IMG/VR virus record: IMGVR_UViG_3300011531_000036
Coordinates: 1 to 3,170 of that record
DNA: 3,170 nt
Strand: one strand, 5' to 3'
From: a virus
Taxonomy: Duplodnaviria > Heunggongvirae > Uroviricota > Caudoviricetes
Shown here: positions 1 through 3,170 of the stretch, piece by piece
Numbering within the stretch: the first letter of the stretch is position 1
Layout: every line of letters begins with the position of its first letter
Program-made: the position numbers and the translations under genes
The notes under the pieces: model-generated
The model's input: only the letters and a program-made list of their open reading frames with translations
Told to the model about the DNA's origin: nothing
The model's database searches: none

Positions 1-192
1 TCAGGAGCATTTCTGATTAACGCCACCGTTAAGAATCCACCCTTCAACAGCTTCACGAAGGTATGATTTGGGGTGGGTTCTGACTGGCTTCGGAAATCCG
101 TGCCGTTTGGTATAGTTCCAGATTGTCTGACGTGATGAAACACCGAGCTTGTTCATCACTTCTTTCTCAGGAATCAGGCTGGTATCGGTCAT
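1..192 (-). CDS. AlpA/Xis-family small helix-turn-helix DNA-binding protein, probable prophage excisionase or regulator (63 aa)
   Basis: Complete ORF: ATG at 192-190, TGA at 3-1. GGAG (plus-strand ctcc at 200-203) lies 7 nt upstream of the ATG. The segment LIPEKEVMNKLGVSSRQTIWNYTKRHGFPKPVRT...W has the AlpA/Xis pattern: a short helix-turn-helix with the 'TIW/TIY ... FPKP' signature and a conserved Trp near the C-terminus. Its position at the distal end of a leftward operon fits xis. Family call is from recollection, not a search. Confidence 0.7.
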   Translation of the reverse strand: MTDTSLIPEKEVMNKLGVSSRQTIWNYTKRHGFPKPVRTHPKSYLREAVEGWILNGGVNQKCS

Positions 193-353: not shown

Positions 354-593
354 TCACTGGTTGCCTCCTTTGCGGATCTGCGCTGCGATGCACGAAAAAA
401 AAGACTCCCGCGTATGACTGTTAAGAGCTGGCGCGAACGCTGCGTTAAGAACGGCAGCATCACAGCCGTCATCGATATAGAGCGCAATTTTTTTCTCCAG
501 GCGCGCTTTGGCTTCCTGCAACTGCATACCCCGGCACGCACGCGGGATATAATCAGCAATTTGAGCGATAGCTTTTTCGTTCTGTTTAAACAT
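354..593 (-). CDS. Hypothetical small phage protein (79 aa)
   Basis: ATG at 593-591 with GAGGT 5 nt upstream (minus strand). The start overlaps the stop of the upstream 67-aa ORF in an ATGTTTAA arrangement (shared nt 586-593). Balanced amino-acid composition. No family recognised. Confidence 0.55.
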   Translation of the reverse strand: MFKQNEKAIAQIADYIPRACRGMQLQEAKARLEKKIALYIDDGCDAAVLNAAFAPALNSHTRESFFSCIAAQIRKGGNQ

Positions 594-789
594 GCTTCAC
601 CTCGATAGGCTTGATGGTGTCTAACAGCAGTCGGCGGCGCGTATTTTCTGCAAAGTGGCGGCGTCCAGTTTCTTTGTGGTAAAACTCGTTTTTGCCGACG
701 ACCCACATCCGTTCTGTTTGGTGCAATTTTTTTACCTGCGGTCCATCTTTGGTGATCACGGTACCGGTATGGGTTTTTACGATTGTCAT
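586..789 (-). CDS. Hypothetical small phage protein (67 aa)
   Basis: ATG at 789-787 with GAGG about 7 nt upstream. The ATG overlaps the TGA of the upstream PAPS-reductase-like ORF as ATGA (786-789). No family recognised. Confidence 0.55.
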   Translation of the reverse strand: MTIVKTHTGTVITKDGPQVKKLHQTERMWVVGKNEFYHKETGRRHFAENTRRRLLLDTIKPIEVKHV

Positions 790-1664
790 GCCACTACCTC
801 TTCGAATTTCAACTCCAATTGGTCACCCCAGATTTCACATGATTCGGAACACGAACCAGTATCAAACCGCTTGGCCAGCACCATCGCCTGATACAAACTT
901 CTGTAGTCGCTGTCGGCATACATTCTGGCAATCCTGTCAAGCGTCAGGTGACCACGGTACATAACGTCTTTACCTGTTCTGCGATGACCATCCCGGACGT
1001 GTTTGCCTGTAACCAGTTCATTAAAAACCCGCATCAGACCAGGTTCGTCTTTACATGCGATCCCCAGCTTTTGCGTTGACTTTTTGATGCAGAAAACACA
1101 GTTCCCGAGGTGCTCCGGGATTTGCAAATCAAAAGGTTGTTTACGCCACCACCGGATAACATCCGACTTATCAAAATCTGACAGCTCGGCAAGATACCGG
1201 ACGCCCGGTTTCGGTTTCAGCCTACGGTGTTCGTCCGCACGAATACCCAGCCATGTGATGTAATTCCCTCGCCCAAAATGGTCATCGCAATATTTCGTGA
1301 AAGGGGTGAGTTTTAGCCTGTCAGTACAGAATGCGCCGCCGATGTATGGCGTACCGTACTTTTTAACCATGTCCATAAACGGTTTAAGCACCGGCATTCG
1401 CGTCTGAATATCCTTTGGTTCCCATTCCGTATAACCATTTGGCTGCCCAAGCTCTGGATTTATATCGACCTGCAACACAGTTAGCGGTATGCCCCAGAAC
1501 TTCACAACCTCCCGAATAAAGCGGTATGTCAGCGGATGTTCGCAACCGGTATCCATAAAGATGTAGCAGACGTTATTGCCAGCCTTTCTTTGTTCTTCCA
1601 TCAGGTGAACAAGATATGCAGATGTTCTCCCGCCAGAAAAACTAACTACATGAGTTATGCACAT
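786..1664 (-). CDS. Phosphoadenosine-phosphosulfate (PAPS) reductase family / PP-loop ATP-pyrophosphatase-fold protein, phage-associated (292 aa)
   Basis: ORF of 292 aa. N-terminal VVSFSGGRTSAY resembles the PP-loop SGGxDS motif. The segment FMDTGCEHPLTYRFIREV aligns by eye with the conserved CysH block ILTDTGYLFPETYRFIDEL. There is a CxxC (NCVFCIKK) and a C-terminal Cys cluster (GSCSESCEIW). The ATG at 1664-1662 lies 4 nt upstream of the upstream gene's stop codon (TAA 1657-1655; ORFs share nt 1655-1664), so the weak SD is compensated by coupling. Confidence 0.85.
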   Translation of the reverse strand: MCITHVVSFSGGRTSAYLVHLMEEQRKAGNNVCYIFMDTGCEHPLTYRFIREVVKFWGIPLTVLQVDINPELGQPNGYTEWEPKDIQTRMPVLKPFMDMVKKYGTPYIGGAFCTDRLKLTPFTKYCDDHFGRGNYITWLGIRADEHRRLKPKPGVRYLAELSDFDKSDVIRWWRKQPFDLQIPEHLGNCVFCIKKSTQKLGIACKDEPGLMRVFNELVTGKHVRDGHRRTGKDVMYRGHLTLDRIARMYADSDYRSLYQAMVLAKRFDTGSCSESCEIWGDQLELKFEEVVA

Positions 1665-2191
1665 TTGCGTAATTCCGATAACTCGTTGAAGCGTTCCATA
1701 AACATCCCGTAGGCATGGCCCGGTGCCAGTGGAATCACTTTGAACATCTCTGTTGCCGGGATACCTTCCAATACAGGCCAGAAAGAGCCATCATCAAGTC
1801 CGAGATCGCGGCGTTCGGTTGCCAGCATGATGAGATCGGCATATTTCACTGGCGTGCTCATAACAGGAGGTAACCCGTATTTCTCACGGATTACGGCGTC
1901 TATTTTTTCTTCCATCCGTTTATAGTCAGGAAGAAGTCGTTTCAGTGGTGCGGGGATGTCATGGCAATACGCTTCTGTTGCATCATGCATTAACGCTTCA
2001 AAAGCAAATTCCTGCGGCACCAGCTGGCTGCAAAGCACCGCATGCTGGGCGACACTGTAGAAGTGTGAAAGATGTCCTGCAAAGCGACAGATATTTGAAA
2101 GGGAAACCGCGATATCGTTAATAACGATGTCGTCTTTATTTATCTTGTCATAATAAAAATGCTTCCCGGAAAAAGTTTTAATAAATGACAT
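1655..2191 (-). CDS. yfdR: HD-domain phosphohydrolase, YfbR/YfdR-family 5'-deoxynucleotidase (178 aa from the ATG at 2191)
   Basis: HD motifs are visible: RFAGH, then ALMHDATEAYCHDIPAPLK, matching the YfbR-type block ALxHDAxEAxxGDxPxPxK. The preferred start is the ATG at 2191-2189 with GGAG 6 nt upstream; the ORF track's 187-aa version starts at an in-frame GTG at 2218 with no obvious SD. The 178-aa length and prophage context match my recollection of E. coli CPS-53 YfdR; the symbol is assigned from memory, not a search. Confidence 0.85.
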   Translation of the reverse strand: MSFIKTFSGKHFYYDKINKDDIVINDIAVSLSNICRFAGHLSHFYSVAQHAVLCSQLVPQEFAFEALMHDATEAYCHDIPAPLKRLLPDYKRMEEKIDAVIREKYGLPPVMSTPVKYADLIMLATERRDLGLDDGSFWPVLEGIPATEMFKVIPLAPGHAYGMFMERFNELSELRKCA

Positions 2192-2315
2192 TTTGTTCTC
2201 CACGTATATGCGCTGCACCGCGCTGAATTCGGGTAAAAGGAAGCCCTCACCGTCCGGCGATTATTGAGTCAATTACATTTCCATAAATGCCCCCGTAGGG
2301 GCGGTTAGTTTCTCC

Positions 2316-2404
2316 ACAAAACAGAGAAGAACACCTGCGGTGGCAGCCGCCCGGATGGATTGGGTTATGAGCCCGTCGTCCGGTGATGCTCTTCTCTGTT
2401 TTGT
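2316..2404. repeat. Perfect 15-bp inverted repeat (acaaaacagagaaga at 2316-2330, tcttctctgttttgt at 2390-2404) enclosing a 59-nt GC-rich insert that can form two further hairpins
   Basis: Verified base by base. Inner helices: gcgg/ccgc at 2337-2340/2347-2350, and ccggatg/cgtccgg at 2351-2357/2377-2383 with a nested ggg/ccc at 2362-2364/2372-2374. Overall a three-way-junction-like fold of 89 nt. Lies in a region without credible coding potential. Confidence 0.8.
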
Positions 2405-2449
2405 AAAAAGGACGGTACCAGCCGGAAGCAAGGGTACAAGCTGGTACCG
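2403..2449 (-). terminator. Candidate rho-independent terminator on the minus strand (10-bp GC-rich stem plus U-tract)
   Basis: Perfect inverted repeat cggtaccagc (2413-2422) and gctggtaccg (2440-2449) with a 17-nt loop. On the minus-strand RNA the stem is followed after 3 nt by UUUUU (complement of 2409-2405). The loop is larger than typical, so it may instead be a structured RNA element or protein-binding palindrome. Confidence 0.4.
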
Positions 2450-2480
2450 CCAAGACTACACACAGCATAAAGTTGTGGTG

Positions 2481-2500
2481 CCGGGTGCCTCCCGGTGCCT
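2481..2500. repeat. Tandem decamer ccgggtgcct / cccggtgcct
   Basis: Two adjacent 10-nt units differing at one position. The second unit overlaps a 6-bp stem, gcctgg (2497-2502) pairing with ccaggc (2516-2521). Confidence 0.7.
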
Positions 2501-2590
2501 GGCGAAGGTTGCACACCAGGCGGGTGGGTATCCACAGAAGGTCGACTGTCAGCCTCAACCTTAACCCGCGTGCGCTGAGCCGCATTCACC

Positions 2591-2720
2591 ACAACGCTAA
2601 GGATTCTCTCTGGTTGAAAATACTTAGCTGTTATGTGCCTGCTTTTAGCCACATCAGGCGAGGTGGACCTAGTTATTCCCCAACAACAAGGATTCGGTTA
2701 ATCTGGTTATCCCCAACAAC
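2591..2720. promoter_or_regulatory. Degenerate direct repeats upstream of the 144-aa ORF (candidate operator/iteron-like sites)
   Basis: gttattccccaacaac (2672-2687) and gttatccccaacaac (2706-2720) are near-identical, 34 bp apart; the second ends 15 bp before the ATG at 2736. A looser module, acaac..aaggattc..ctgg, recurs at 2591-2613 and 2682-2705. No convincing sigma-70 -35/-10 pair could be placed by eye. Confidence 0.45.
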
Positions 2721-2735: not shown

Positions 2736-3170
2736 ATGTCCGGTAATATCTATACGCTGTACAAATCCCACTGTGAAAATGTTGGAAAGTATCGGGGCAT
2801 TGAAATCAGTGGGGTAGTGTCATCAGTCGAAATAAGCAAAGTTGAATCAAGGGCAACATTACTTACTCTTTTGGACCTTGTTTTACATGAGCACCGGAAG
2901 AAATTCGGCACTCCCTATAATCAGTTGAATGGGAAAAAGGCTCTGGTTCACCTTATTCTGATGAAGCATCACTGGATGCCAAAACAGATTAATGAGATGA
3001 AATTTGATGAACTTCTTCTTTCAATTCAGGATGAACTCACACTTGATAAAATAAGCGTAACCGCCCAGAAATTTTTAGATTATCGAGACTGGAGATCACA
3101 AATTCATCACTTTGATGATTTTGACGAAAATGAATGGGATCCTAATTTGTCTGCACAATATCTAAAGTAA
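2736..3170 (+). CDS. Hypothetical orphan protein (144 aa), AT-rich moron-like gene with an acidic C-terminus
   Basis: Complete ORF: ATG 2736 to TAA 3168-3170, with AGGA 6 nt upstream (2726-2729). No competing ORF on either strand. About 38% GC by hand count (2741-3170), against about 58% in the adjacent non-coding region. C-terminal third is rich in D/E (HHFDDFDENEWDPNLS). No family recognised. Confidence 0.75.
   Translation: MSGNIYTLYKSHCENVGKYRGIEISGVVSSVEISKVESRATLLTLLDLVLHEHRKKFGTPYNQLNGKKALVHLILMKHHWMPKQINEMKFDELLLSIQDELTLDKISVTAQKFLDYRDWRSQIHHFDDFDENEWDPNLSAQYLK

Follow-up and report, generated by a model that had tools for sequence, protein, structure and literature searches.

The window, by which we mean the whole 3,170-nucleotide stretch of DNA that was analysed, carries on its minus strand a set of leftward genes that is preceded by three hairpins and, further upstream, by a structured RNA region. 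The features are as follows.

1-192, minus strand: AlpA/Xis-like gene
354-593, minus strand: gene for a 79-aa protein
586-789, minus strand: gene for a 67-aa protein
786-1664, minus strand: PAPS-reductase-like gene, following yfdR
1655-2191, minus strand: yfdR (HD-domain 5'-deoxynucleotidase), the first gene after the three hairpins
2247-2585, minus strand: 112-aa ORF crossing the RNA core, the predicted terminator and the second hairpin; counterpart of K-12 'ymfH'
2288-2303, minus strand: third hairpin, small and GC-rich (GCCCC-UAC-GGGGGC), with AUUUAU next; the scan scored it on the plus strand
2316-2404, minus strand: second, long hairpin with 25-nt arms, beginning directly past the U-tract; its 3' arm ends in UGUUUUGU
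2405-2409, minus strand: U-tract UUUUU, one nucleotide past the stem; predicted RNA 3' end at 2405
2411-2451, minus strand: predicted terminator hairpin, with a 13-bp stem made of a perfect 10-bp core and a G.U-containing extension, and a loop of 15-17 nt
2452-2471, minus strand: single-stranded linker UUUAUGCUGUGUGUAGUCUU, joining the core to the predicted terminator
2472-2595, minus strand: STnc100-type structured core, placed by the RF02076 match, covariation in P1, the pseudoknot and the alignment
2587-2595 with 2472-2480, minus strand: P1 of the core, followed by GGUGAAU
2481-2495, minus strand: P5 of the core (CCGGG-AGGCA-CCCGG)
2497-2521, minus strand: P4 of the core
2556-2562 (AAGGUUG) with the P4 loop 2505-2511 (CAACCUU), minus strand: predicted pseudoknot
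about 2568-2583, minus strand: P2 of the core
2596-2628, minus strand: P0 hairpin, GCUAAG...CUUAGC, abutting the core on its 5' side
2635-2659, minus strand: upstream hairpin, GCCUG...CAGGC followed by AC; likely 5' processing boundary

First, the palindrome at 2411-2451 was examined. A repeat search of the window found two arms of 10 nt, at 2413-2422 and 2440-2449, which were 100% complementary and separated by 17 nt; in the minus-strand RNA they are read as UUGGCGGUACCAGC, the loop and GCUGGUACCGUC, followed by C-UUUUU-ACAAAAC. With RNAfold the stem grew to 13 pairs, including two G.U pairs (2451 to 2439 with 2423 to 2411), around a 15-nt loop. The minimum free energy of the hairpin was -23 kcal/mol, compared with -11.65 ± 2.38 kcal/mol for dinucleotide shuffles (z -4.77), and only 1 of 200 shuffles folded as well. 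A perfect inverted repeat of at least 10 bp with a loop of 3-20 nt occurred in 4.7% of 2000 dinucleotide-preserving shuffles of the window, and a repeat of this class flanked by a T/A tract in only 0.55%. The strong palindrome and minus-strand U-tract described in the first-pass annotation are therefore real. Two properties of an intrinsic terminator were present, namely a stable GC-rich hairpin and a U-rich tract right 3' of the stem (C-UUUUU-AC, with only five U's), and the loop of 15-17 nt lay outside the 3-8 nt that is typical. The consensus terminator scan missed the hairpin because it admits only loops of 3-8 nt. The palindrome has no T-tract after it on the plus strand, which makes the predicted terminator directional, acting on the minus strand. 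Since the loop is far longer than in typical intrinsic terminators and is followed by only five U's, the efficiency of termination may be modest.

The sequence upstream of the hairpin was compared with Rfam. A cmscan search gave a match to STnc100 (RF02076) on the minus strand at 2625-2402, covering the full model (positions 1-206), with 43.4 bits and an E value of 2.1e-7. This score is below the gathering score of 47 bits, and annotation pipelines therefore do not call the window RNA. The alignment placed the 5' end of the RNA at 2625, and model positions of about 175-206, which form the 3' terminator stem-loop with its U-tail, were aligned to 2449-2402. The closing helix with GGUGAAU, the P2 hairpin with its UNNGC loop, P4 and the CCGGG-AGGCA-CCCGG hairpin, invariant as CACCGGGAGGCACCCGGCACC, were all found in the model alignment, and the window RNA shares a prophage location with the family. 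Closing helix P1 showed covariation across 131 STnc100-family sequences; here, as for the pseudoknot and the second hairpin, covariation was counted by anchored scripts, which are less rigorous than an Infernal alignment. The first-pass annotation did not mention this large conserved structured RNA.

There were also differences from the model. P2 reads GCGGC...GCGC.CGC in the window and CCCCC...GG.GGG in the model; the window form is a compensatory variant common to copies in other Enterobacterales genera. The terminator loop has 15-17 nt in the window versus about 5 nt in the model, and the window copy lies in an early-left operon by the immunity region, whereas previously described copies map near Q, stx or lpxR in the late region. 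STnc100 includes EcOnc27/sRNA103, located downstream of stx2B, and PasD has been reported as related. Members of the family are Hfq-associated (PMC12711010; 10.64898/2026.05.13.724894).

Outside the core, other complementary sequences take the place of the P0 stem in phages P1, phiES15 and ST64B. The upstream hairpin is kept in e14, SfIV and phiES15, and the conserved block ends at 2666. On the 3' side of the core, the linker segment UGCUGUGUGUAGUCUU was nearly invariant over three different terminator types. The region 2670-2280 as a whole folded at -173.6 kcal/mol, compared with -132.5 ± 5.2 kcal/mol for shuffles (z -8). The hairpin is most likely the 3' stem-loop of a minus-strand non-coding RNA of about 220 nt, spanning about 2625-2405.

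The 3' part of this RNA was compared with the small RNA DicF. The DicF covariance model (RF00039) scored 28.5 bits (E 2.8e-4) on the e14 homologue and 19.4 bits on the window, both below its gathering score of 48. In local alignments with the DicF terminator, the window scored 27, compared with 13.7 ± 2.3 for shuffles (reached by 2 of 5000), and e14 scored 37, compared with 13.9 ± 2.3 (reached by 0 of 5000). Judged by sequence, the terminator arm and the DicF terminator (UUGGCGGUAyCAG...CCGyCCUUUUUA) are homologous, the likeness covering both the 5' arm and the 3' end (UUGGCGGUAUCAGUUUU...CCGCCCUUUUUA versus UUGGCGGUACCAGCUU...CCGUCCUUUUUA). Each of the two RNAs is encoded in an early operon under repressor control in a lambdoid prophage, with kil- or xis-type genes downstream, and each adjoins an STnc100-type core, which in Qin is located between dicF and dicB. 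DicF is reportedly produced via RNase E cleavage and termination. Evidence of upstream cleavage was found in the K-12 homologue of the window RNA, and the predicted 3' fragment of the window RNA, at about 62-63 nt, is similar in size to DicF (53 nt). However, the order of the modules is reversed, the core preceding the DicF-like part in the window and DicF preceding the core in Qin, and the single-stranded 5' parts, which hold the candidate seed, are not alike. Because the linker differs from the 5' part of DicF, DicF targets such as ftsZ cannot be assumed. The linker is a candidate seed of the DicF-like 3' fragment, with a predicted processing site near 2468; a local search for linker targets within the prophage returned only the linker itself.

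Published transcript ends were available for E. coli K-12, whose e14 element is about 90% identical to the window across the block 2299-2666. In the Term-seq data of Adams et al. 2021 (Supplementary file 1), a 3' end at 1201195 was supported by 34,193 reads and called in one of three growth conditions (third sheet; M63 glucose by caption order) (PMC7815308). Mapping of the published coordinates onto the sequence placed this end on the last U of the homologous CCCUUUUU, in agreement with the first-pass proposal that the hairpin terminates leftward transcription. The earlier worry that a 17-nt loop would make the hairpin too weak was not borne out, since the e14 hairpin has an 18-nt loop and yet carries the mapped 3' end. 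It is from this homologue, whose loop differs, that we infer termination by the window's own copy. Two further 3' ends were found in e14. One, at 1201257 (...CACCACAACUUUA), is located just past the core and corresponds to window position 2468. The other, at 1201423 (...GACAGGCAC), lies past the upstream hairpin at window position 2635 and was supported by 109,000-285,000 reads in all three conditions; this strong end at the upstream hairpin points to 5' processing of a longer transcript.

The e14 RNA also behaved like an Hfq sRNA in RIL-seq. In the re-analysis of Hfq RIL-seq data by Bar et al. 2021 (Table S1), 'ymfH' had an sRNA score of 0.113, the cut-off for candidates being 0.1, with 81 chimeric fragments, 3 partners, an SIC score of 0.667 and a U-tract length of 6 (PMC8175672). 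The SIC score of 0.667 means that 'ymfH' was always second in the chimera, and by sRNA score it ranked beside dicF (0.103); in a second condition it scored 0.094 with 117 fragments (PMC8175672). The Hfq CLASH supplements contained no 'ymfH' entry. The STnc100-like 3' stem-loop, the e14 Term-seq end and the RIL-seq behaviour uphold the other proposal of the first-pass annotation, that a small RNA on the minus strand has its 3' end in the hairpin, and the two proposals, cassette terminator and sRNA 3' end, are not exclusive.

A promoter for this RNA was then sought. The consensus scan found no sigma-70-like minus-strand promoter in 2450-2735; the sole minus-strand match, TTGGCA-16-CAGAAT at 2982-2955, lies in antisense of an ECs1072-family ORF. 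The Cappable-seq supplements gave no coordinates in the ymfH region, and no reliable ymfH promoter was found in Reg-Seq. The pair CTGATG...CATAAC upstream of the RNA was considered as a weak -35/-10 and rejected, as it is conserved across relatives as GCAC-N-AACAG after a hairpin; in P1-like phages this block follows a tRNA 3' end. The suggestion that a small RNA is initiated somewhere in 2450-2735 was thus not supported, given that the conserved upstream sequence is not promoter-like and that the K-12 end at 1201423 points to processing. Since no promoter was found, an independent sRNA gene would be hypothetical.

Next, the module was followed into relatives. It heads the early-left operon in e14 of K-12, in SfIV, SfV and SfII, in ST64B and in phiES15, where the block 2299-2666 precedes differing cargo: yfdP-yfdQ-yfdR in SfIV and in L003, xisE-intE in e14, sb37 in ST64B and kil in phiES15. 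Matches to the STnc100 model below threshold were also obtained in SfIV, phiES15, ST64B, P1 and e14. ST64B and phiES15 keep the conserved core and linker and then diverge: the hairpin of ST64B is longer and of another sequence (-33 kcal/mol), and that of phiES15 is a canonical one, GCCCGC-UUUC-GGGCGGGC. In both a T-tract follows at the same place, so that hairpin and T-tract are kept in spite of unrelated stem sequences. The recently described sRNA svsR of an SfV-like prophage (PMC12803456) is a different element, located at the cI 3' end. Downstream of the U-tract, the second hairpin is kept in e14, SfIV, ST64B and mEp460, with three compensatory pairs among 25 variants; it could serve as a back-up terminator, or in processing or stability. 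The third hairpin lies at the junction 2299-2302, where BLAST of the window against SfIV and L003 showed that yfdP-yfdQ, present in SfIV-type phages, are absent. The predicted terminator is in line with and upstream of yfdR, the PAPS-reductase-like gene and xis, which makes it also a boundary or attenuator and agrees with the boundary inside the leftward operon that had been proposed from the window alone.

These data make it highly probable that the palindrome is the Rho-independent terminator of a minus-strand non-coding RNA gene that heads the early-left operon (xis/int side) in a lambdoid prophage of the e14/SfV/SfIV type. Directly established for this reading are the hairpin statistics, the homology, the conservation of hairpin and T-tract, and the 3' ends and Hfq chimeras in the K-12 homologue. 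Leftward transcription would come in from beyond 2666, its likely source being a pL-type promoter by the repressor gene, outside the window. The transcript would fold into the upstream hairpin (2659-2637), the P0 hairpin and the pseudoknotted STnc100-type core (2595-2472), followed by the conserved single-stranded linker and the DicF-type hairpin with its U-tract, and RNA polymerase would free part of the transcripts at about 2405. The released RNA would probably be cut past the upstream hairpin to give a species of about 220-230 nt, and a second cut near 2468 would yield a stable core and a fragment of about 63 nt consisting of linker, terminator hairpin and U-tail. This fragment would be built like DicF and other Hfq-dependent sRNAs and might act in trans. 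Polymerases that read through, in whatever proportion, would meet the long hairpin (2404-2316) and the third, small hairpin, and then transcribe yfdR, the PAPS-reductase-like gene, the two small genes and xis. As the terminator would both end the sRNA and precede the accessory cassette, it would have two roles, formation of the sRNA 3' end and attenuation.

The conservation and complexity of the core (P1, P2, P4, P5 and the pseudoknot, with many covarying duplexes) are also consistent with a cis-acting leader, in which the hairpin is the expression platform and the core senses a signal, such as a metabolite, a protein, a tRNA or a modification of RNA polymerase, and gates the early-left genes (accessory cassette, xis/int, kil/dicB). 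The core was always co-oriented with the next gene and upstream of it, in one of two configurations typical of riboswitch platforms: either the terminator came next (the window, ST64B, phiES15 and many genomic copies), or the RBS and start codon followed at about 20-40 nt (P1 tciA, Qin dicB and others). Structured leaders of the Listeria SreA/Rli51 type, derived from 5' leaders or riboswitches and serving also as trans-acting sRNAs, likewise have a terminator upstream of an operon and accumulate as discrete RNAs. However, the downstream genes were functionally heterogeneous (YfdP, an LpxR-like OMP, TerB-like, Xis, Kil and small membrane proteins). The conserved 20-nt linker parts the core from the terminator, and no conserved antiterminator pairing was found; neither the coherent gene function nor the exclusive terminator/antiterminator pairing of a riboswitch was therefore seen, and the window RNA differs from the Listeria leaders in having no identified ligand. 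Core and terminator are separable, mEp460 having the terminator and no recognisable core, and P1 the core and no terminator. In addition, the RNA accumulates and forms Hfq chimeras like a trans-acting sRNA. We therefore regard a cis-acting leader as improbable. A composite form of this idea, in which the hairpin is the output module of a cis-acting control RNA whose core gates transcription or translation of the early-left 'decision' genes (xis/int, kil, dicB, accessory cassette) on a cellular signal or host factor, and the terminated product is recycled as a DicF-like Hfq sRNA, is likewise given little probability. The STnc100-type domain of this composite is also found between dicF and dicB in Qin, ahead of kil (phiES15) and of tciA (P1), and within the tRNA arrays that P1-like phage-plasmids carry.

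A plain terminator of the tL type inside a pL operon, meant for override by antitermination after induction and preceded by functionless RNA, was also weighed. Like lambda tL1, the hairpin is an intrinsic terminator candidate in an early operon transcribed leftward, with the immunity region on one side and the recombination/excision (xis-side) genes on the other. In e14, xisE/intE were strongly induced upon DNA damage and the left-arm genes rose about 36-fold (PMC11228462), which indicates that the block is leaky or overcome. In the close relatives L001 and SfIV, a strong promoter resembling pL (TTGACA and CATAAT, spaced by 16-17 nt) lies upstream and is overlapped by GTAC operators, and an exact rrn-type boxA, GCTCTTTAACAA, was found in the pL leader of these two only, outside the window. 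However, the loci of e14, ST64B, phiES15 and mEp460, which bear the same RNA module, lack this boxA, and rrn-type boxA complexes mainly suppress Rho-dependent, not intrinsic, termination. No N-like antiterminator family was found among the neighbouring proteins, and neither an N homologue nor a lambda-type boxB was detected. Override by antitermination, as the first-pass annotation had suggested, is thus left with the boxA of the closest relatives as its sole hint. A bare terminator would also leave unexplained the conservation and covariation of the 220 nt upstream and the Hfq RIL-seq behaviour, and the window terminator ends a conserved structured RNA. We consider this reading very improbable.

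The remaining two readings have a negligible probability. That the palindrome acts as DNA, as an operator-like protein-binding site or a recombination or mosaic-junction site, was suggested by the palindromic GGTACC within its arms, by CTTGTACC within the loop, which equals one half-site of the operators that the repressor has in L001 between ymfK and ymfT, and by several phages that match only across the terminator segment (window 2395-2453); however, the half-sites are spaced by 13 nt versus 5 nt in the operators, e14 lacks the loop half-site though its repressor protein is identical, the unrelated hairpins of ST64B and phiES15 still keep the T-tract, and the K-12 transcript ends on the U-tract. 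An operator role of the GGTACC arms and loop was rejected on this spacing and lack of conservation. That the palindrome is incidental coding sequence of the 112-aa ymfH-like ORF fits the span of the ORF and its annotation, ymfH in K-12, 'hypothetical protein' by PGAP in most genomes and in nearly all the sampled full-length matches, but the ORF, followed from its conserved ATG, was interrupted in 40 of the 96 unique variants, after 7-109 codons, its counterpart in L001 and L003 was flagged by PGAP as 'hypothetical protein (frameshifted)', it fell into no Pfam or PHROG family, and the indels in ST64B, phiES15 and P1 keep the RNA helices and not the frame. The 112-aa ORF is not a gene.

The preferred reading, a terminated non-coding RNA at the head of the early-left operon, bears on a large number of genomes. 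The 246-nt element matched 2,777 of 5,426 complete E. coli genomes, with at least 80% coverage in 1,848. The element currently listed as a hypothetical protein or ymfH is most likely an RNA gene, and ymfH and its relatives therefore deserve re-examination. If the composite control RNA were true, the STnc100 family would amount to a class of phage RNAs, regulatory or tRNA-like, that is widespread and has gone unrecognised, and its members would not be ordinary base-pairing sRNAs. The window RNA, which joins the known small RNAs STnc100 and DicF as an unannotated prophage relative, places an Hfq-type sRNA and a terminator right before the genes for excision and accessory functions in a prophage type that is very common, which would offer a testable control point for the leakage of prophage genes in lysogens. 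The recurrence of a DicF-type terminator and an STnc100-type core as neighbours, in e14-type phages and in Qin, may help to explain the origin and function of both RNAs.

The window is the xis-side part of the early-left region of a lambdoid prophage of the e14/SfV/SfIV type. Its top full-length match was E. coli XDL (96.8% identity), in which a LexA-like repressor gene (ymfK), a cro-like gene and replication genes lie to the right. The genes of the window are as follows.

1-192, minus strand: AlpA/Xis-like gene
Between the AlpA/Xis-like and PAPS-reductase-like genes, minus strand: two small phage genes
786-1664, minus strand: PAPS-reductase-like gene
1655-2191, minus strand: yfdR, HD-domain 5'-deoxynucleotidase
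2219-2735: stretch without a credible gene
2736-3170, plus strand: ECs1072-family ORF

Two genes that SfIV and many prophages of E. coli carry, yfdP and yfdQ (together about 1.3 kb in SfIV, mEp460 and L003, a relative with both genes), were missing from the window. The junction was at 2299-2302, within a small GC hairpin (2288-2303), and its flanks shared a 4-nt overlap; only 3 of 5,426 genomes had this arrangement over at least 80% of the window. The sequence TCCCCAACAAC (extended TTATyCCCCAACAAC) occurred twice without a mismatch, at 2677-2687 and 2710-2720, 33 bp apart, in the divergent region that immediately precedes the start of the ECs1072-family ORF (2736), and a copy with one mismatch lay near the small leftward gene in XDL (L001). 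These copies may be a regulator-binding site. Matches to C4 antisense RNA and isrK above the Rfam gathering scores were present in ST64B (L006 1409-1597) and mEp460 (L008 1324-1512), where the antirepressor region lies rightward of the immunity genes and contains these matches.

The first-pass annotation had described a strong palindrome with a U-tract on the minus strand, and both were confirmed. A repeat search of the window gave a perfect 10-bp inverted repeat (2413-2422 and 2440-2449) with arms 17 nt apart, which on the minus strand reads UUGGCGGUACCAGC-loop-GCUGGUACCGUC, then C-UUUUU-ACAAAAC. RNAfold extended the stem to 13 pairs (2451..2439 with 2423..2411), including two G.U pairs, and the fold energy was -23 kcal/mol in comparison with -11.65 +/- 2.38 in shuffles (z -4.77). 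Any perfect inverted repeat of at least 10 bp with a loop of 3-20 nt occurred in 4.7% of 2000 dinucleotide-preserving window shuffles, and one adjoining a T/A tract in only 0.55%. On the plus strand no T-tract followed the palindrome, and the terminator signal is therefore directional. The palindrome was not called in a consensus terminator scan of the window, because the scan permits loops of 3-8 nt only. The hairpin loop (2431-2438, minus strand) holds CTTGTACC, identical to a half-site of the repressor operators in the ymfK/ymfT interval of XDL (L001 12271 and 12284); it was rejected as an operator, since the half-site spacing does not fit and the motif is missing from e14.

The palindrome was also part of a larger structured RNA. 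Rfam cmscan gave a full-length match to the sRNA family STnc100 (RF02076) on the minus strand (2625..2402; E 2.1e-7), with a score of 43.4 bits that lies below the gathering score of 47, and aligned the palindrome with the terminal stem-loop and U-tail of the model. The parts of the RNA, all on the minus strand, are as follows.

2659-2637 (foot about 2635): upstream hairpin, then AC-AUAACAG
2628-2596: P0 hairpin, its stem swapped for other complementary sequences in P1, phiES15 and ST64B
2595-2587 with 2480-2472: closing helix of the core
Directly after the 5' strand of the closing helix: GGUGAAU
Within the core: P2 hairpin of 3 bp, a bulge and 2 bp with a UNNGC loop
2521-2497: P4 hairpin
2495-2481: near-invariant CCGGG-AGGCA-CCCGG hairpin
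2471-2452: single-stranded linker UUUAUGCUGUGUGUAGUCUU
2451-2405: the terminator-like hairpin and U-tract
2404-2316: second hairpin, each arm 25 nt, for which 25 variants gave three compensatory pairs
2303-2288: third hairpin, small and GC

The whole stretch 2670..2280 folded at -173.6 kcal/mol, in comparison with -132.5 +/- 5.2 for shuffles (z -8). Among 131 family sequences, pair 5 of the closing helix was U-A in 88, C-G in 31 and A-U in 2, and pair 6 was G-C in 103 and A-U in 14. Read off the sequences, P2 had two mutually compensatory forms, CCCCC.../...GG.GGG and GCGGC.../...GC.CGC. A pseudoknot was found between the P4 loop (2505-2511) and the strand directly 3' of P2 (2556-2562), with the duplex AAGGUUG/CAACCUU in the window, AAGGCUGG/UCAGCCUU in phiES15 and, by eye in the cross-phage alignment A1, UGGUUAU/AUAACCA in P1. 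The family had 74 distinct duplexes of at least 5 bp at this place, many of them covarying, with a mean of 5.9 bp in comparison with 4.5 bp for permuted partners. This pseudoknot is absent from the Rfam consensus structure line, and no mention of it was found in the STnc100-family papers examined. The second hairpin (2316-2404), which is very stable, has A/U-rich ends and starts at the nucleotide that directly follows the U-tract, was kept with compensatory changes in e14, SfIV, ST64B and mEp460; it may act as a second terminator, as an RNase III site or as a stabiliser.

The block 2299-2666 was kept at about 90% identity in the e14 prophage of K-12, where it is annotated ymfH directly upstream of xisE-intE, and it was also kept upstream of yfdP in SfIV/SfV/SfII. 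Between its genes sb38 (cI-like) and sb37 (yfdP-like), ST64B retained the core, linker and second hairpin, and phiES15 retained the upstream hairpin, core and linker upstream of kil. After the conserved core and near-invariant linker, three unrelated hairpins were found, each with a T-tract at the same place: the window type, the longer, branched ST64B type (GUCGGCGUC...GACGCCGAC, -33 kcal/mol), and the canonical phiES15 type (GCCCGC-UUUC-GGGCGGGC). The window-type stem GGUACCAG/CUGGUACC was nearly invariant among 24 variants, and the comparative argument for a terminator is therefore replacement between types, not covariation within a type. The core lacks a terminator in P1-like phages and in many genomic copies, where it lies about 20-40 nt from a ribosome-binding site and start codon. 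In mEp460 (L008 3900-4060), the terminator and second hairpin are those of the window, and the sequence upstream of them is another one with only a vestigial core-like 3' end (CCGG...CCGGUCACCACAAC), so modules have been exchanged at the linker.

The 3' ends of the K-12 homologue have been mapped by Term-seq (Adams et al., 2021; PMC7815308, Supplementary file 1), with three minus-strand ends within the e14 element: 1201195 (34,193 reads; third sheet, M63 glucose by caption order), 1201257 (29,484 reads, LB at OD 0.4), and, in each of the three conditions, 1201423 (109,099-285,136 reads), which is the strongest 3' end of the region in K-12. Mapped onto the sequence, 1201195 is the last U of ...CUGGUACCGCCCUUUUU, equivalent to window position 2405. 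An end there is the signature of intrinsic termination. For the K-12 homologue, the hairpin of which has a loop of 18 nt, it meets the refutation test set in the first-pass annotation. End 1201257 (...CACCACAACUUUA; window about 2468) lies four nt beyond the core closing helix, and 1201423 (...GACAGGCAC; window 2635) falls at the base of the upstream hairpin. In a re-analysis of the Hfq RIL-seq data of Melamed 2016 (Bar et al., 2021; PMC8175672, Table S1), 'ymfH' had an sRNA score of 0.113 against a candidate cut-off of 0.1, with 81 chimeric fragments, three partners and a U-tract length of 6, and ranked beside dicF (0.103); in a second condition the score was 0.094 with 117 fragments. With three partners, its SIC score of 0.667 means that ymfH was always the second RNA in the chimera. 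No ymfH entry was found in Hfq CLASH tables.

The linker and hairpin also resembled the sRNA DicF (RF00039). The DicF covariance model gave 19.4 bits (E 0.59) for the window and 28.5 bits (E 2.8e-4) for the e14 copy. When DicF was locally aligned with the 3' module, the score was 27 for the window and 37 for e14, in comparison with 13.7-13.9 +/- 2.3 for shuffles, and these scores were reached by 2 of 5000 and 0 of 5000 shuffles, respectively; the common segments were UUGGCGGUAyCAG and CCGyCCUUUUUA. In Qin, an unannotated STnc100-type core (NC_000913.3 about 1649446-1649586, L249 1947-2087; 34.1 bits, E 1.1e-5) filled the interval from the dicF terminator to dicB and ended about 22 nt ahead of the dicB start codon. 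P2 of this core is of the GCGGC type, as in the window, and its P1 and P5 show compensatory changes. Published Term-seq data place a 3' end at 1649584, just past the closing helix of the core, which parallels e14 1201257. In prophage early operons, a DicF-type module and an STnc100-type core thus recur side by side, with either one first. Faubladier and colleagues reportedly found in 1990 that DicF is made via RNase E cleavage and Rho-independent termination. The K-12 3' ends suggest that production of the present RNA follows this logic of cleavage and termination, and the likely products would be an RNA of about 220-230 nt, a stable core, and a linker and terminator fragment of about 62-63 nt.

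The element with the structured RNA has been annotated as protein-coding. K-12 ymfH (NC_000913.3 1201069-1201380) and the 'hypothetical protein' calls over the element in E. coli overlap the conserved structured RNA. Of 5,426 complete E. coli genomes, 2,777 contained a match to the 246-nt element, and in 1,848 of these the coverage was at least 80%. Where sampled hits matched over the full length, nearly all had a 'hypothetical protein' call over the element. The 112-aa ORF of the window (2247-2585, minus strand), counted from its conserved ATG, was interrupted after 7-109 codons in 40 of 96 unique variants, was flagged as frameshifted by PGAP in two genomes, and matched none of the Pfam and PHROG families searched. 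Since the reading frame is not conserved, the protein annotation is probably wrong. A metabolite-specific riboswitch is argued against by the heterogeneous genes downstream of the core, which encode YfdP, an LpxR-like outer-membrane protein, TerB-like TciA, Xis, Kil and small membrane proteins.

A consensus scan found no sigma-70-like promoter in 2600-2735, the conserved sequence upstream of the RNA was not promoter-like, and Reg-Seq did not find a reliable ymfH promoter. In XDL, the closest relative, a strong leftward promoter (TTGACA, 16-17 nt spacer, CATAAT) overlapped by GTAC-type operators lies directly past the terminator of the repressor gene. A boxA and this pL-like promoter region are to the right of the window on the minus strand (L001 11392-11403 and 11500-11545; about 9042-9053 in SfIV, L002). 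The pL-like leader has a hairpin and then GCTCTTTAACAA, which is identical to the rrn boxA core; it occurred once in 19 kb, where chance expectation was 0.09 even with one mismatch allowed, and was also present in SfIV, again in the leader of a strong pL-like promoter. The boxA was absent from the e14, ST64B, phiES15 and mEp460 loci, and Pfam and PHROG searches of neighbouring proteins gave no N-like protein. Complexes of the rrn type chiefly target Rho-dependent terminators. Antitermination at the hairpin, which the first-pass annotation had raised, is possible. DNA damage induces ymfH, xisE and intE of e14, with a mean of 36-fold across 17 e14 genes (PMC11228462); the block is therefore leaky or overcome after induction.

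When one genome per species was scanned for the invariant 20-mer of the family, copies were returned from many Enterobacterales genera, including Kosakonia, Enterobacter, Klebsiella, Raoultella, Pantoea, Erwinia, Citrobacter, Trabulsiella and Superficieibacter. Tandem arrays with a spacing of 220-270 nt were formed by some of the copies. Two or three tandem cores on the same strand, 220-560 nt apart, were present in L167 (Superficieibacter electus), L166, L184, L208 (Citrobacter braakii) and L162 (Enterobacter quasiroggenkampii), most with their own terminator where inspected (L162, L166, L167 and L184). For 60 of 123 copies, a crude finder that visibly missed several placed a terminator no more than 150 nt from the core. 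In P1-like contigs, the core lay inside phage tRNA arrays. It was between tRNA-Thr and tRNA-Ser in L087 (4263-4809), with tRNA-Ser starting a few nt past the closing helix, and started about 80 nt past tRNA-Thr in L047 (2964-3315). These positions suggest that the core is co-processed with tRNAs or has a tRNA-like role. The motif GCAC-N-AACAG after the upstream hairpin was kept in P1, phiES15 and ST64B, and in P1-like phages it comes after the 3' ends of tRNAs.

The best explanation of the hairpin is an intrinsic terminator that makes the 3' end of an unannotated, DicF-related prophage RNA of the STnc100 family and also attenuates transcription running leftward into the yfdR-to-xis cassette. 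The case for terminator function is built on structure, comparative replacement and K-12 3'-end mapping, and that for sRNA function on homology and K-12 RIL-seq statistics; we infer the processing scheme, the source of transcription and the degree of read-through. STnc100/EcOnc27 and the related PasD have been treated in published work as Hfq-binding prophage sRNAs of unknown function, and no link to e14, ymfH, DicF or Qin was found in the papers examined. The chief value of the finding is that it corrects a widespread, probably wrong protein annotation and ties STnc100 to DicF.
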